Positions 58,737 to 63,916 of a stretch of DNA of 64,000 bases are shown here, piece by piece; the first letter of the stretch is position 1; each line of letters begins with the position of its first letter. A model generated the notes under the pieces. The model was not told the origin of the DNA, made no database searches, and saw nothing but the letters and a program-made list of their open reading frames with translations. The stretch spans positions 13,615 through 77,614 of the forward strand of contig JBEGRZ010000002.1 of assembly GCA_041180115.1 (NCBI GenBank), in the 5' to 3' direction. A program made the position numbers and the translations under genes. This DNA comes from Actinomycetota bacterium (GTDB lineage: Bacteria; Actinomycetota; Actinomycetes; Actinomycetales; Microbacteriaceae).

Positions 58737-59324
58737 ATGACTTCGAGAGTGCATTCAGGGCGGCTACGTCGTGAACTGCGCCTTTCGAAGTCGGCTGTTG
58801 AGGCAAATCTCTCTGTTCTGGGGCTCAGCCCAGAAGAAGCTCGTCCGGTCATTGACGCAGTGATGACTTTCGATGGGCTCCTCGGGCTCTATGGCACCGA
58901 ACTACTCTTGCTTGAAAAAGTCTTGGGGCTTGGCACCGAAACCCCAGCGGTTCGCCTTGTTGGTGAACTCGTCTCGGTGAAGCAGGTTCCGGCTGACACC
59001 GGCATATCATACGGACACCTTTCTAAGACTTCTGAGCCAACCAACCTAGGCTTGGTCGCCCTAGGCTTTTCTGACGGAATCCCGCGAGCCGCCACCAACG
59101 AACTAATGGTCAAGATTCAGGGCAAGGCATACAAAAATGTGGGCCGCATCGCGATGGATCAGCTCATTATCAATCTAGGTATCGATAGCCCGTCCATTGG
59201 TTCCGAGGTTGAGCTTTTCGGCGATGCGCAGACTTTGGCGCAATTGGCCGGAGTTACCGGATTCTCCCCGCTTGAAATCATCGGACGCATCCCGGCTCGT
59301 GTTGCTAGGACGTGGTCGGATTGA
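58737..59324 (+). CDS. stand-alone alanine-racemase C-terminal-domain protein (retains catalytic-Tyr motif)
   Basis: 195 aa. LVGELVSVKQVPADTGISYGH...LGLVALGFSDGIPR...VGRIAMDQLIINLG...GSEVELFG aligns by eye with the whole Ala_racemase_C beta-domain, including the SYG Tyr (nt 59010-59012) and the MDQ motif. No PLP-Lys barrel is present. It could alternatively be a gene remnant. Confidence 0.6.
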   Translation: MTSRVHSGRLRRELRLSKSAVEANLSVLGLSPEEARPVIDAVMTFDGLLGLYGTELLLLEKVLGLGTETPAVRLVGELVSVKQVPADTGISYGHLSKTSEPTNLGLVALGFSDGIPRAATNELMVKIQGKAYKNVGRIAMDQLIINLGIDSPSIGSEVELFGDAQTLAQLAGVTGFSPLEIIGRIPARVARTWSD

Positions 59325-60331
59325 CCGTAGCCAAGCATGTAGATCTCGCGGCTTACGTTCGAAACCTAAAGACCATTCGAGAGCAGATGCAGCCTGCGCG
59401 CATAATGGCCGTTGTGAAGGCGGACGCCTATGGTCACGGATTGGTCGAGGTAGCCAAGGCTGCCGCGACCGCCGGCATCAACCTGCTTGGCGTACTCGAT
59501 GTTGAGACCGGCTTGGAACTGCGCCTGGCTGGAGTTCAGACCACCGCCTTCGCTTGGGTGCACTCCCCTTCTACCGACTTCGAAGCAGCCATTCGCTCGA
59601 ACATCGAACTTAGCGCTTCTTCCTTAGCCGAGCTCGAACGCATCGCGATGGCCCCTGGCATGGCCAAGGTTCACTTGAAACTTGACTCCGGACTTAGCCG
59701 GGGTGGAACCCGAATTGAGGATTGGGACGCACTGGTGACTCGTGCTGTAGCACTGGACGCCCGCGACAAGATTGACCTGGTGGCCGTTTGGTCGCACCTC
59801 TCGGGAACCTCAAAGTCTGCCGACGAAGCCTCGATAGCTCTCTTTGACGAAGCGACCAATCGCGCCTTCGACCTCGGCTTCACCGGCTATCGACACATTG
59901 CTTCGAGCCCGGCTGCATTTGCACTTCCGCAGTCTCGTTATGAGCTCGTGCGCATTGGTGTGAGTGCATTTGGCACCTCGCCGATTGAGGGCCGCAAGGC
60001 TTCATCGTTCGATCTCGAATGTCCAATGACGGTGACAGCAGAAGTAATTGCTCCGCAGGTAATTTCAATCGGTTTTCTCCACGGCTACTTCTCAAAGCTC
60101 AGCGGCAAGGCCAAGGTACTAATCGGCGGTCGTGCGTACCAGGTGACTCAGGTTGGTCCGCTCGCGTCCAAGATCGAGGCTGGCGACTATAGCGAAGGTG
60201 ATGAGGTTTTGGTTTTTGGTGGCGAGGATACTGGCGCTCCAACCGCGGAATACCTTTGTGAATTGGTTGAAACCGTAACCGATGAAATCTTCACCGGCCT
60301 GAAGGCAAACTCAACGATTTACTCGTCTTGA
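59312..60331 (+). CDS. alanine-racemase-family PLP enzyme with degenerate C-terminal domain
   Basis: 339 aa. The barrel motifs are intact: MAVVKADAYGHG (PLP Lys at nt 59417-59419), WSHLSG and VRIGVSAFG. The C-terminal domain lacks the GE.V.YG segment and the MD motif. It overlaps the upstream ORF by 13 nt. Confidence 0.8.
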   Translation: MVGLTVAKHVDLAAYVRNLKTIREQMQPARIMAVVKADAYGHGLVEVAKAAATAGINLLGVLDVETGLELRLAGVQTTAFAWVHSPSTDFEAAIRSNIELSASSLAELERIAMAPGMAKVHLKLDSGLSRGGTRIEDWDALVTRAVALDARDKIDLVAVWSHLSGTSKSADEASIALFDEATNRAFDLGFTGYRHIASSPAAFALPQSRYELVRIGVSAFGTSPIEGRKASSFDLECPMTVTAEVIAPQVISIGFLHGYFSKLSGKAKVLIGGRAYQVTQVGPLASKIEAGDYSEGDEVLVFGGEDTGAPTAEYLCELVETVTDEIFTGLKANSTIYSS

Positions 60332-61009
60332 GATAGCCTCTCGAGACTTTTCGGCAAGTTGATTTAGCGTCGCATTCCTCTTGGCAACTTTGCCCGAAAT
60401 TCCTAGCAACTCATCGGCGACACTTGGGTTCATCGGCAGGAACGGACCCTGAATGTTGGTGGCGATGATGTTGCCAGTGCGGTAGCCGTCTTGGTAACCG
60501 ACCAATTGCGCCTCATTCGAAGACGAAACCGTGGCCAAAATTGACTCTGTCCCACCACGCACAATCTCGCGGTTCCAGTTGATGAATCCCGCTAGTCCAG
60601 ATTCGGTTACAACTTCACCAACTAGGTGATCGTTAGTGATTCGATGCCTGGTATCGGCGAGACCCAGCCCAAATAGGGTTTGCCCGGGCTCAACTTCAAG
60701 ACCTTTGGAGATTAGGTCGAAACCCGCGCCAACCGCGAGAACCTTGGCACCCGCGCCAACCCAATCAATAAGCTTTGGAGACTTCTTTTCGAGATCCACA
60801 GAGGCGACCTTCACCGCACTGAGGATTCCGGAACCGATGAAAATCAAGTCGGGTTTTTCGGTTGGTAGGTTTTCACCCAACTCGACCGACTGAACTGCTA
60901 CTTCTAGCCCACTCGCCTTGCCGCGTTCTACAAGCGCAACGACATTTCCAACTTCCCCGTTTAGGTGAAGGGTATTTGGGTAGAGATGAAGAATCGTGAA
61001 TTTAGGCAT
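60311..61009 (-). CDS. gatD: GatD-like (CobB/CobQ-type GATase fold) partner of MurT, cysteine-free
   Basis: The ATG at 61009 (MPKFTILHLYP...) overlaps the murT stop by 8 nt. The 232-aa product is collinear with GatD, but the nucleophile elbow reads LAVGAGFDL and the His motif reads NIQGPFLP. There are no Cys codons in the ORF. Confidence 0.82.
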   Translation of the reverse strand: MPKFTILHLYPNTLHLNGEVGNVVALVERGKASGLEVAVQSVELGENLPTEKPDLIFIGSGILSAVKVASVDLEKKSPKLIDWVGAGAKVLAVGAGFDLISKGLEVEPGQTLFGLGLADTRHRITNDHLVGEVVTESGLAGFINWNREIVRGGTESILATVSSSNEAQLVGYQDGYRTGNIIATNIQGPFLPMNPSVADELLGISGKVAKRNATLNQLAEKSREAISRRVNR

Positions 61010-62255
61010 TTCCGCCCTCAAGGTCTAGAAGGCCGAGACGCTTGCGCAACCACATCATCTGCTCGTAATTGATCACTGCGGTTTTGTTGGTGCCAGGCAG
61101 TTTCAGGAAGTACTCAAGCGCTGCGTTTTCGTCCTCAATTAGTTCACCGAAATCTAGGTTCTCGTAGGCGAGCCTTGTGGCCCACTGGTAAGTCTTGGTT
61201 CCCGAAATGACATCTGCATGGCGAAGTTTGCCGAGGTCAATATCGTAAATCCACGAAGGATCCGGCGTTCCCTCGTCAACGGAAATCCACACGGTCTTTG
61301 GACTCTCCTGCAATGCATCGAGGTTCGCCTGCAGGCTTGGCAAATTCTTCATCATGATGATTTCGATGTTCTGGCCCTGGTGATGAATAACTTCGCCACG
61401 ACCATAAACGGCTTGCAGTTCGGAAATCGCATCGGCGGCAACCTGCGCCTTGAAATCGGCGCCGATGATCTTCGATGCCATACCGATAGCCAGAGCCGCA
61501 TCGACGGCATAGTGAAGCCCTGCAGCCGGCAGAGTCAGCTCGACCGCGGCACCGCCGTGAGTGATGACCGCACGGTTCCCCGATGTTGAAACTAGATTGA
61601 TGATGTGTTGCAGGTCCGATTCATCTAAGTCAAAACTAGGTGCAGCCAGGATTCCATTTCTGGCCGATGCCACAGCTTCCTTGCTTGCGTAAACTCCGAA
61701 AGCCTTGAGACGTGCTCGGTGTCCCTTGGCTAGTCGTTCGGTATTCGGATCGGTTCCGTTGACCACCAGTAGTTCTTTAGTGAGAGTGGCCAGCTCGTCA
61801 AGGTAACCAAACACTTCTTCCGGTGAATGGAAGCGGTTCAGCTGATCAAACTGCAGGTTGGTTAGCAGTAGACCGTTTGGCGCAACCTTTTTGGCAATTA
61901 ACTTTCCGTAGGCTTCGTCAACTTCAAGCACAGCCACATCGTGATCAAGGCGTCCGAAGAGACTGACGTCGGCCAGCAGAGCCGATGCCAGTCCCTGCGG
62001 AAGGTTACCGCCAGCTGGGTTAGAAAGAACTCTTAGCCCATGAGCACGCAGAACCTTGACCAGCATTGCTGTTGTCGTTGATTTACCGTTGGATCCGCTT
62101 ACGAAATAGATTCCGCGCTGCATGCGGCCGAGAGTTTTCTGGAGGAACTTAGGCTCGATTGCTAGGGCGATTCGACCGGGAACGGCCGAACCACCACCAC
62201 GCAGCCTAAGGACAAAGCGAAGCGCCTTGCCCACCAGAACTGCCAGTGGAATCAT
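61002..62255 (-). CDS. murT: MurT-like Mur-ligase-family protein
   Basis: 417 aa. The P-loop VSGSNGKSTT, EVDE, TNLQFDQLNRF and the MurT C-terminal string DPSWIYDIDLGKL are present. There are no Cys codons in the ORF. Confidence 0.85.
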   Translation of the reverse strand: MIPLAVLVGKALRFVLRLRGGGSAVPGRIALAIEPKFLQKTLGRMQRGIYFVSGSNGKSTTTAMLVKVLRAHGLRVLSNPAGGNLPQGLASALLADVSLFGRLDHDVAVLEVDEAYGKLIAKKVAPNGLLLTNLQFDQLNRFHSPEEVFGYLDELATLTKELLVVNGTDPNTERLAKGHRARLKAFGVYASKEAVASARNGILAAPSFDLDESDLQHIINLVSTSGNRAVITHGGAAVELTLPAAGLHYAVDAALAIGMASKIIGADFKAQVAADAISELQAVYGRGEVIHHQGQNIEIIMMKNLPSLQANLDALQESPKTVWISVDEGTPDPSWIYDIDLGKLRHADVISGTKTYQWATRLAYENLDFGELIEDENAALEYFLKLPGTNKTAVINYEQMMWLRKRLGLLDLEGGNA

Positions 62256-62257
62256 CG

Positions 62258-63916
62258 CTAGTTTCCGCGGAACTCACTCAGACGCTGTGCACGGGTTGGG
62301 TGCTTCAGCTTCGAGATCGCCTTGTTTTCGATCTGGCGAATACGTTCACGAGTCACGCCGATTTCTTCACCAATCTGGTCAAGGGTCTTCGGGATTCCGT
62401 CGATCAGGCCGTAACGGTGACGAAGGATCAGCGCTTCGCGCTCGCTCATGGTCGAAAGGATTCTTTCGAGTTCACGCTTACGAGCAACCGCGGTCACTGC
62501 TTCTAGCGGGCTTACAGCCTCGGTGTCTTCGATGAGGTCACCGAACTCGCTGTCGCCATCCTCGCCAAGTGGGGTGCTTAGCGAGATTGGCTCACGACCG
62601 TACTTCTGAACTTCAACAACCTTTTCAGGGGTCATGTCAAGTTCACGAGCTAGTTCTTCTGGGGTCGGTTCACGGCCAAGATCTTGAAGCAACTGACGCT
62701 GTACACGAGCAAGCTTGTTGATAACTTCAACCATGTGTACCGGAATGCGAATGGTTCGCGCTTGGTCTGCCATGGCTCGGGTAATTGCCTGACGAATCCA
62801 CCAGGTTGCGTAGGTCGAGAACTTGTAGCCCTTGGTGTAGTCGAACTTCTCAACCGCACGGATCAGACCCAGGTTTCCTTCCTGGATTAGGTCTAGGAAC
62901 TGCATGCCACGCCCCGTGTAACGCTTGGCAAGGCTAACCACCAAACGAAGGTTGGCTTCGAGCAGGTGACTCTTGGCTCGCTCTCCGTCCTTCTTCACAC
63001 GGTTTAGGTCGTACTGCATCTCCTTCGAGAACTTTGCCTTAGGGTCGGCTAGTTTCTCAGCGGCGTAGAGACCAGCCTCGATTCGCTTCGCAAGTTCAAC
63101 CTCGAGCTCAGCATTTAGAAGCGCAACCTTACCGATCTGCTTCAGGTAGTCCTTGACTGGGTCAGCGGTCGCGCCGTTGATGGCTGCGGTCTGAACTGGA
63201 ATGTCGTTCTCTTCTTTGTTGCTGAGAACGAAACCACCGCCGGCTTCTACTAGCTTTTCTTTTTCCTTAGCCGATGCGTCTAGGCCAGATTCGTCGTCTG
63301 TCGACTCATCTTCAATTTCGGTTACGTCAACTTCAGCGGCTGCGTCCTTGACAATGTCTTCTACCGAGTCAAGCGGTTCGTCTTCATCGTCTAGCTCTTC
63401 GTCATCCTCGTCCATGCCCTTAGGTAGCTTGCCAGGTTTGCCCTTGGCCACCTTGGTCGCCTTGGCTGGCTTCGCTGCAGGACCAGTGCTCTTGGCGGCT
63501 TTGGCTGGCTTTTCAGTCTTTTCGGCGACAGGAGCTTCCGCCTTCTTGGTCTTTGGAGCAGCCTTAGCTGCAGGGGCTAAATCTTTAGCCTTCTTCTCCA
63601 CTGCAGGTTTTACGGCCTTTGCAGCTGGCGCGACCTTCTTAGCGGCAGGCTTAGCTGCCTCGGTCTTCTTTGGAGCAGCCTTGGTCGCAGGTGCAGCCTT
63701 CTTTGGAGTGGCTACTGCGGCAGGCTTCTTCGCAGCAGGCGCCTTGGCAGGTGTGGAAGTCGTTTTTGCAGGGGTGGTCTTGCTAATGGTGCTGGTTTCC
63801 TTTGCTTCTGTCATTGCCGCCGGAGCTTTTGGCTCCTGTTTGCCTGATCCAAACAGTCCTTTCAAAAAGGACTGCTTCTTGGCTGGCCCCTGGCCGTTCG
63901 CTTTGTCGTTCCCCAA
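62258..63916 (-). CDS. sigA: principal RNA polymerase sigma factor (SigA/HrdB/RpoD type)
   Basis: The C-terminal ~300 aa carry regions 1.2-4.2 ([83 protein letters not shown]). The N-terminal ~250 aa are low-complexity. The start is uncertain: TTG 63916 or ATG 63814. Confidence 0.95.

Follow-up and report, generated by a model that had tools for sequence, protein, structure and literature searches.

Loss of the glutaminase residues from a MurT-associated GatD homologue in Microbacteriaceae and a possible role in group-B cross-bridge formation

The GatD homologue and its MurT partner

The window analysed here is a 64,000-nucleotide stretch of Microbacteriaceae DNA (contig JBEGRZ010000002.1). 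Among its genes are murT, encoding a Mur ligase family protein, and a neighbouring gene for a homologue of GatD. In Staphylococcus aureus, MurT and GatD together amidate lipid II, using ammonia that GatD releases from glutamine. The homologue in the window has no cysteine, and we refer to its gene as gatD* and to the product as GatD*. Coordinates are listed in Table 1. GatD* appears to be a pseudoenzyme, in which essential catalytic residues have been lost while purifying selection is present.

The gatD* gene starts with an ATG at position 61009 and comprises 232 codons, none of which specifies Cys. As for canonical gatD, it lies directly downstream of murT. The two genes share 8 nt, so that the gatD* start codon overlies the murT stop codon, and a Shine-Dalgarno-like element is located inside murT, 5 nt upstream of the ATG. 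The equivalent overlap is 4 nt in Leifsonia xyli and at two further loci, L016 and L017. A preliminary description of this DNA, made from the letters alone, called the open reading frame (ORF) intact and coupled to murT by the 8-nt overlap. Direct reading of the sequence bears this out, and the positions it gave for codons 94 (Gly) and 187 (Gln) are correct.

We assessed homology to GatD using sequence, profile and structural comparisons. The product of gatD* matches Pfam family GATase_3 (PF07685; 32 bits, cut-off 27), which represents the CobB/CobQ-like type of class I glutamine amidotransferase fold. The best NCBIfam models are both GatD equivalogs, with scores far under the cut-offs (NF052463, 77.2 versus 450; NF045636, 49.2 versus 400). 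A phmmer search of the PDB identified S. aureus GatD (5n9m/6gs2; E = 5e-16). In this alignment 'lavGagfdl' pairs with 'ltiCggyqfl' and 'tniQgpflpmn' with 'tylHgpilpkn'. Comparison of a 12-member clade profile with 25 canonical GatDs, using hhalign, gave a probability of 99.96 % (E = 9e-39) and again placed Gly94 on Cys94 and Gln187 on His189. An AlphaFold2 model of GatD*, built with 79 homologues, has a mean predicted local distance difference test (pLDDT) score of 95 and a predicted template modelling (pTM) score of 0.92. In the model, Gly94 sits between strand 89–93 and helix 95–99, which is the nucleophile elbow. Foldseek returned the GatD structures 5n9m/6gs2 as top PDB matches for the model, with a template modelling (TM) score of 0.84. 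Hence, the assignment of the ORF to GatD, first made by eye, is upheld by phmmer, hhalign and AlphaFold2/Foldseek alike. Sequence search, profile–profile alignment and structure model also concur on Gly at the Cys position and Gln at the His position.

GatD* has the same fold as the GatD proteins of S. aureus (SA1707, 5n9m/6gs2) and Streptococcus pneumoniae (6fqb), and is collinear with them over its full length. The G-P-x-L-P-x-N motif and Gly21-Asn22 are also present. Unlike S. aureus GatD, however, GatD* has lost more than its nucleophile and catalytic His (Cys94 to Gly, His189 to Gln). Further replacements are Arg128 to His, Gln98 to Asp, Glu147 to Ile and Asp19 to Glu, and the oxyanion motif GGG reads GSG, the middle Gly60 being replaced by Ser. 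Across the clade to which the window belongs, the Arg128 column is His or Tyr and the Glu147 column is hydrophobic. With the nucleophile, the catalytic base, the glutamine-capturing Arg and some of the oxyanion hole gone, GatD* is predicted to be unable to make ammonia from glutamine. The earlier claim that it cannot be a Cys-nucleophile glutaminase agrees with the phmmer and hhalign pairing of Gly94 with Cys94. By these residues, glutamine hydrolysis by GatD* appears to be excluded.

The preliminary description drew the same conclusion from the lack of any Cys codon. The count of zero is right, but the argument is weak by itself because the genome is poor in Cys. Briefly, Cys accounts for 0.55 % of residues in window ORFs of at least 200 aa, 10 of the 47 such ORFs have none, and a Cys-free protein of 232 aa is expected by chance in the window with P ~0.28. 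On the alignments, the telling fact is that Cys is lost where all canonical GatDs compared have it (25/25), rather than that the ORF is Cys-free.

The partner protein, MurT, matches Pfam Mur_ligase_M (PF08245, 40.9 bits) and MurT_C (PF08353, 26.8 bits; cut-off 25). Its best PDB matches are 6fqb (E = 6e-27) and 6gs2. As with GatD*, the score against the NCBIfam equivalog is low (NF045635, 92; cut-off 800). MurT consists of a Mur ligase middle domain followed by MurT_C and has no N-terminal uridine diphosphate (UDP)-binding domain. Where MurT can be aligned to solved enzymes, the catalytic residues are kept. These are the P-loop GSNGKS, the Mg-binding EVDE, the acceptor-carboxylate Asn (GGN), the D136/R140 loop residues, Arg304 and Lys-Asn. 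MurT must lack the Cys4 zinc ribbon because it contains no Cys; the ribbon is also absent from some other MurT lineages (PMC6113224; PMC6085368). The Asp of 'DPSWIYD' is equivalent to D349 of S. aureus, which faces GatD, and to D355 of S. pneumoniae. The loop before this residue, DEGTPDPSWIYD, is remodelled, with the canonical 'ND.AADG[RI]D' shortened to 'DEGTPD'. The lineage-specific 'DEGTPD[PI]SW[IV]YD' stands in place of 'ND.AADG[RI]DTSW' in the window, in L. xyli and at loci L016 and L017.

Table 1. Positions of gatD*, murT and adjacent features in the window
Feature	Position	Strand	Description
gatD*	60311..61009	-	232-aa GatD homologue, class I amidotransferase fold, no Cys
Codon 94 of gatD*, Gly	60728..60730	-	Position of catalytic Cys (S. 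aureus Cys94)
Codon 187 of gatD*, Gln	60449..60451	-	Position of catalytic His (S. aureus His189)
murT/gatD* overlap ATGCCTAA	61002..61009	-	gatD* start codon over murT stop codon; read from sequence
GAGGG Shine-Dalgarno-like element	61015..61019	-	Inside murT, 5 nt upstream of gatD* ATG; read from sequence
murT	61002..62255	-	417-aa Mur-ligase-family partner; Pfam and PDB matches
Sigma-70 (rpoD-type) gene	62258..63916	-	Pfam Sigma70 regions r1_2, r2, r3, r4
Long alanine-racemase-family gene	59312..60331	+	339 aa; pyridoxal phosphate (PLP)-Lys motif present, catalytic-Tyr segment missing
Short alanine-racemase-family gene	58737..59324	+	195 aa; C-terminal domain only, catalytic-Tyr motif G-I-S-Y-G

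Conservation and distribution of Cys-less GatD

We searched for close relatives of GatD* in protein and genome collections. The protein database contains 68 clusters with 46–100 % identity to GatD*, all from freshwater Actinomycetota assemblies. Both Gly94 and Gln187 are present in every one of these clusters. A genome scan, made with a profile of the window's clade alone, recovered 13 species in which the gene order is kept; these are labelled Rhodoluna sp., or as Microbacteriaceae or Micrococcales metagenome-assembled genomes (MAGs). The gatD* orthologue is intact in 14/14 genomes. Reading frame and length are conserved in these 14 genomes and in the 68 clusters. A sequencing artefact was ruled out by identical or similar sequences in many independent assemblies. 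In one orthologue (P0068, 215 aa; locus L013, 2440-3078) an in-frame internal deletion of ~20 residues removes the segment equivalent to Arg128.

To describe selection we used raw proportions of differing sites, not dN/dS, because synonymous sites are saturated. For the 14 genes the median nonsynonymous difference is 0.32 and the synonymous difference (pS) is 0.76. The nonsynonymous value for murT is 0.19. GatD* also evolves faster than its neighbours when clade loci are compared as proteins (46–71 % identity versus 70–91 % for MurT). These proportions indicate that gatD* is under purifying selection and is not decaying.

Conservation is concentrated where the active site used to be. In the 16 columns that make up the former active site and its vicinity, conservation is 97 % and 13 columns are invariant; over the full protein it is 66 %. 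This level was not reached by any of 20000 random column sets. Hence, the remodelled pocket is the most constrained part of GatD*. In solved complexes the active-site pocket of GatD faces MurT (PMC6085368). The stretch G188-P189-x-L191-P192-M193-N194-P195, a Pro-framed hydrophobic segment that contacts MurT, is invariant in a 12-sequence clade alignment. Position 95, beside the elbow, is Ser, Ala, Thr, Gly or Val. The preliminary description proposed a retained role without glutaminase activity; purifying selection in the 14 genes, and conservation of the old active-site columns, speak for that proposal.

We then surveyed Cys-less GatD beyond the window's clade. A profile search of 1.84 billion representatives produced 3649 hits. 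From these we built a neighbour-joining tree using the best 150 of the 3649 together with two reference sequences, 151 in all. Cys is missing from 71 of the 151 tree sequences, and 61 of the 71 fall in one pure clade. All named Cys-less sequences in this main clade are from Microbacteriaceae. The genera with Cys-less forms are Leifsonia, Diaminobutyricibacter, Rathayibacter, Pseudoclavibacter, Frondihabitans, Rhodoglobus, Microcella, Salinibacterium, Conyzicola and Rhodoluna. Nearly all of the 71 have Ser, Asn, Thr or His in place of Gly60. Three long proteins, P0280 (737 aa), P0298 (791 aa) and P0307 (794 aa), have a canonical Cys-containing GatD domain at the C-terminal end, at approximately residues 500–780; their size suggests that they are MurT–GatD fusions.

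A search with the Leifsonia homologue found 1076 relatives. In the 123 of these that were examined, the Cys column is Ala in 115, Ser in 5, Thr in 2 and Gly in 1, and His189, Arg128, Gln98, Glu147 and Asp19 are retained. Among 55 further sequences of the Leifsonia type, Cys is replaced by Ala in 53. Compared with GatD*, the other Cys-less proteins of Microbacteriaceae share the tree clade, the rpoD–murT–gatD gene order, the MurT loop and the replacement of Gly60 by Ser. They differ in that most have Ala94 with His189, Arg128, Gln98, Glu147 and Asp19 kept, whereas in the window's clade none of these five residues remains. Cys loss is an old, family-wide trait, because 61/71 Cys-less sequences form one clade and its named members are all Microbacteriaceae; the window's freshwater clade is an extreme derivative. 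Hence, on whether the Cys-less form is clade-specific, the survey points to a family-level trait that extends beyond this genome.

According to the structure paper on pneumococcal MurT/GatD, the operon is universal in Actinobacteria; Cys-less forms are not mentioned there (PMC6085368). In public annotation, the Cys-less proteins of Microbacteriaceae are called 'glutamine-hydrolyzing' or 'cobyric acid synthase'. For example, the L. xyli protein is automatically named 'Lipid II isoglutaminyl synthase (glutamine-hydrolyzing) subunit GatD'. The 'glutamine-hydrolyzing' names are probably wrong for the whole family Microbacteriaceae.

A candidate amino-acid ligase and the alternatives

A defective GatD has been studied in S. 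aureus. The C94G mutant of Munch et al. 2012 (PMC3266927) carries the same nucleophile substitution as GatD*. In that mutant, glutamine-dependent amidation was abolished but NH3-dependent amidation at pH 8.5 was unaffected (PMC3266927). The NH3 route gave no activity at pH 7.5, and MurT alone was inactive whatever the nitrogen donor (PMC3266927). A C94S mutant was likewise inactive with glutamine (PMC6113224). The C94G data indicate that a dead GatD can still serve MurT and that an outside amine can be used. GatD* differs from the laboratory mutant by six more active-site changes, all fixed in the clade, and it is the natural and only version known in the lineage.

The carboxyl group activated by MurT, the alpha-carboxyl of D-Glu, is the one that bears the cross-bridge in group-B peptidoglycan. 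The bridge residue is D-2,4-diaminobutyrate (D-Dab) in Rhodoluna, and Gly, D-ornithine (D-Orn) or D-lysine (D-Lys) in other Microbacteriaceae. Beyond Actinomycetota, Erysipelothrix and Eubacterium have group-B walls, and in Micrococcus luteus Gly is attached to the D-Glu alpha-carboxyl. The group-B cross-link, as reportedly described by Schleifer and Kandler in 1972, runs from the D-Glu alpha-carboxyl through a diamino acid to D-Ala of a neighbouring stem. Microbacteriaceae itself is said, going by the title of Park et al. in 1994, to have been created for 'peptidoglycan group B actinomycetes'. Of 10 Microbacteriaceae taxa tabulated elsewhere, among them Salinibacterium and Frondihabitans, 9 have B-type walls (PMC7033078). 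Two MAGs related to the window are assigned to the genus Rhodoluna, of which Rhodoluna lacicola is a cultured member. The wall of R. lacicola is type B2beta, with Gly-D-Glu and D-Ala-D-Dab among the peptides of a partial hydrolysate (PMC4156110).

We propose the following mechanism. Cys would have been lost once, early in Microbacteriaceae, and GatD* kept as an obligatory partner of MurT, with its fold and MurT-contacting surface retained. MurT would use ATP to convert the D-isoGlu alpha-carboxyl of lipid II into an acyl-phosphate. Attack on the acyl-phosphate would then come from the bridge-residue amino group (D-Dab in this lineage) rather than from ammonia derived from glutamine. The old glutamine pocket, remodelled, strongly conserved and lying where GatD* meets MurT, would help to bind or position the amine, or hold MurT in its active shape. 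We infer both the identity of the nucleophile and any ligand-binding role of the pocket.

Known Mur ligases provide the analogy. MurT belongs to the superfamily of MurC-F, with which it has in common the P-loop, the Mg-binding acidic pair and the acceptor Asn. MurC-F add amino acids to carboxylates via an acyl-phosphate; hence, an amino-acid nucleophile is normal chemistry for the superfamily. Compared with MurC-F, MurT is without the N-terminal UDP-binding domain and works on lipid-linked precursors (PMC6113224; PMC6085368). A further difference is that MurT requires a GatD-type partner (PMC3266927). We regard it as an even call that MurT/GatD* is an amino-acid ligase attaching the bridge residue to D-Glu of the lipid-linked precursor. 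The wider proposal is tentative: that MurT/GatD* founds the group-B cross-bridge, that the GatD pocket has been reused in an amino-acid site, and that a single Cys loss marks the origin of the Microbacteriaceae wall type.

A ligase of this kind accounts for loss of the glutaminase, retention of GatD, selection on the pocket and the family-specific MurT loop. The preliminary description had listed a scaffold, an activator of MurT or a channel for a different nucleophile as possible roles. Of these options, we infer that a different nucleophile fits the group-B chemistry of Microbacteriaceae. Our full-text literature search found no paper connecting MurT or GatD with Microbacteriaceae or B-type walls, and no gene assigned to the first step of group-B cross-bridge synthesis. 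Cys loss coincides with the one large bacterial family that cross-links via the MurT-activated carboxyl, which makes MurT/GatD* a concrete, testable candidate for this step. If true, an amidotransferase has reverted to amino-acid ligase chemistry, with the dead glutaminase kept as a required subunit.

Several points weigh against the ligase proposal. The bridge could be attached by ATP-grasp ligases, Fem-type transferases or other Mur paralogues. A second GatD paralogue was not found by tblastn within the 64-kb window, nor was a second racemase paralogue; that search covered the window, and a second canonical gatD or another ligase may exist elsewhere in these genomes. The correlation with wall type compares one family with distant canonical references. 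Since B1 bridges begin with Gly and B2 bridges with a D-diamino acid, specificity would have to vary within a single enzyme family. Finally, ~10 Cys-less representatives lie outside the main clade, one of them from Oscillospiraceae. Losses outside the clade look like independent events. They include isolated changes to Gly in an Oscillospiraceae MAG (P0073) and to His in an unclassified actinobacterium. In P0073, P0269, P0210, P0221, P0249, P0287, P0293 and P0312, Cys is lost (Gly, His, Asn or Ser) and Gly60 is kept.

The main rival to a bridge ligase is ammonia-dependent amidation. Here, MurT would make D-iso-glutamine from free NH3/NH4+, with GatD* only a structural partner. The behaviour of S. 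aureus MurT/GatD-C94G at pH 8.5, and the inactivity of MurT alone (PMC3266927), are what such a partnership requires, and the catalytic motifs of MurT are intact. However, the S. aureus NH3 route failed at pH 7.5 (PMC3266927). Moreover, the bridge occupies the alpha-carboxyl of D-Glu in group-B walls, and no amide is reported for Rhodoluna (PMC4156110). A pure scaffold also leaves unexplained the (near-)invariance of Gly94, Asp98, Gln187, Glu19 and Ser60 in a protein that elsewhere diverges to 46 % identity, as well as the MurT loop specific to the family. We consider ammonia-dependent amidation unlikely.

MurT/GatD* might instead serve another pathway or modify another acceptor, such as a second wall-precursor carboxylate or a non-peptidoglycan polymer. 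The low equivalog scores (77 versus 450 for GatD, 92 versus 800 for MurT) would allow for this, as would remodelling of the MurT loop that is proposed to contact stem residue 3. Conversely, the acceptor-carboxylate Asn (GGN) and overall MurT architecture are retained, both sequence and structure show genuine MurT/GatD proteins as the nearest relatives, and the neighbouring genes point to no alternative substrate. A changed acceptor is thus improbable.

A third idea is that GatD* has remained a glutaminase by moving its nucleophile elsewhere, to Ser60, which stands in place of the middle Gly of the oxyanion GGG in almost all Cys-less sequences. Ser occupies position 60 in 67/68 clade clusters and 121/123 Leifsonia-type sequences, and the latter retain His189, Asp19, Arg128, Gln98 and Glu147. 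In contrast, the window's clade is without the general base and the glutamine-binding Arg (His189 to Gln, Arg128 to His/Tyr, Glu147 hydrophobic). Other Cys-less groups carry Asn, Thr, His or Ala at position 60, the elbow neighbour at position 95 is variable, and S. aureus C94S is inactive even though Ser is at the native position (PMC6113224). Hence, Ser60 could conceivably act as nucleophile in the Leifsonia type, where His189 is kept, but apparently not in the window's clade; overall, we judge it very improbable. Least credible of all is that gatD* is non-functional, decaying and kept merely through its overlap with murT: identity is lower than for MurT and one orthologue (P0068) has an internal deletion, but frame and length persist despite saturated synonymous sites, nonsynonymous differences are well under synonymous ones, the old active-site columns are conserved, the structure model is confident and the state persists across the whole family.

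Neighbouring genes

Upstream of murT is a gene for an rpoD-type sigma factor, the stop codon of which lies 2 nt before the murT start (62253-62260). The order rpoD–murT–gatD* was found at all Microbacteriaceae loci examined, namely 13 clade loci, L014, L016 and L017. Because of the 2-nt gap and the murT/gatD* overlap, the three genes are probably one transcription unit. Hence, a wall enzyme is probably co-transcribed with the gene for a principal-type sigma factor. The sigma factor has an N-terminal extension of ~210 residues before region 1.2, which is rich in Lys, Ala and Pro and is followed by an acidic stretch. Its length differs among relatives, the proteins at L014, L016 and L017 being 424–473 aa.

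Two genes of the alanine racemase family lie on the other side of gatD*. The longer runs convergently to gatD*, sharing 21 nt with the gatD* 3' end. A racemase pair is also found beside murT–gatD* at L016 (9757-11474), L017 (9462-11185) and L014 (15398-16717), and is conserved in the clade loci. At L016 the pair is inverted, being still adjacent and co-directional with murT–gatD*. Across loci the long protein is 339–370 aa; VVKADAYGHG is kept and a segment of ~18 residues with the catalytic Tyr is missing. The short protein is 224–236 aa elsewhere, and G-[IV]-S-Y-G is kept while the N-terminal part is missing or the PLP-Lys is lost. The short racemase is likely a partner of the long one. Their complementary losses suggest that the two proteins form an obligate heterodimer, with a single racemase active site composed from both. 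The pair could provide the wall with a D-amino acid, and a link to MurT is a possibility. The G+C content of the window is 53.9 %, near the 51.5 % of R. lacicola.

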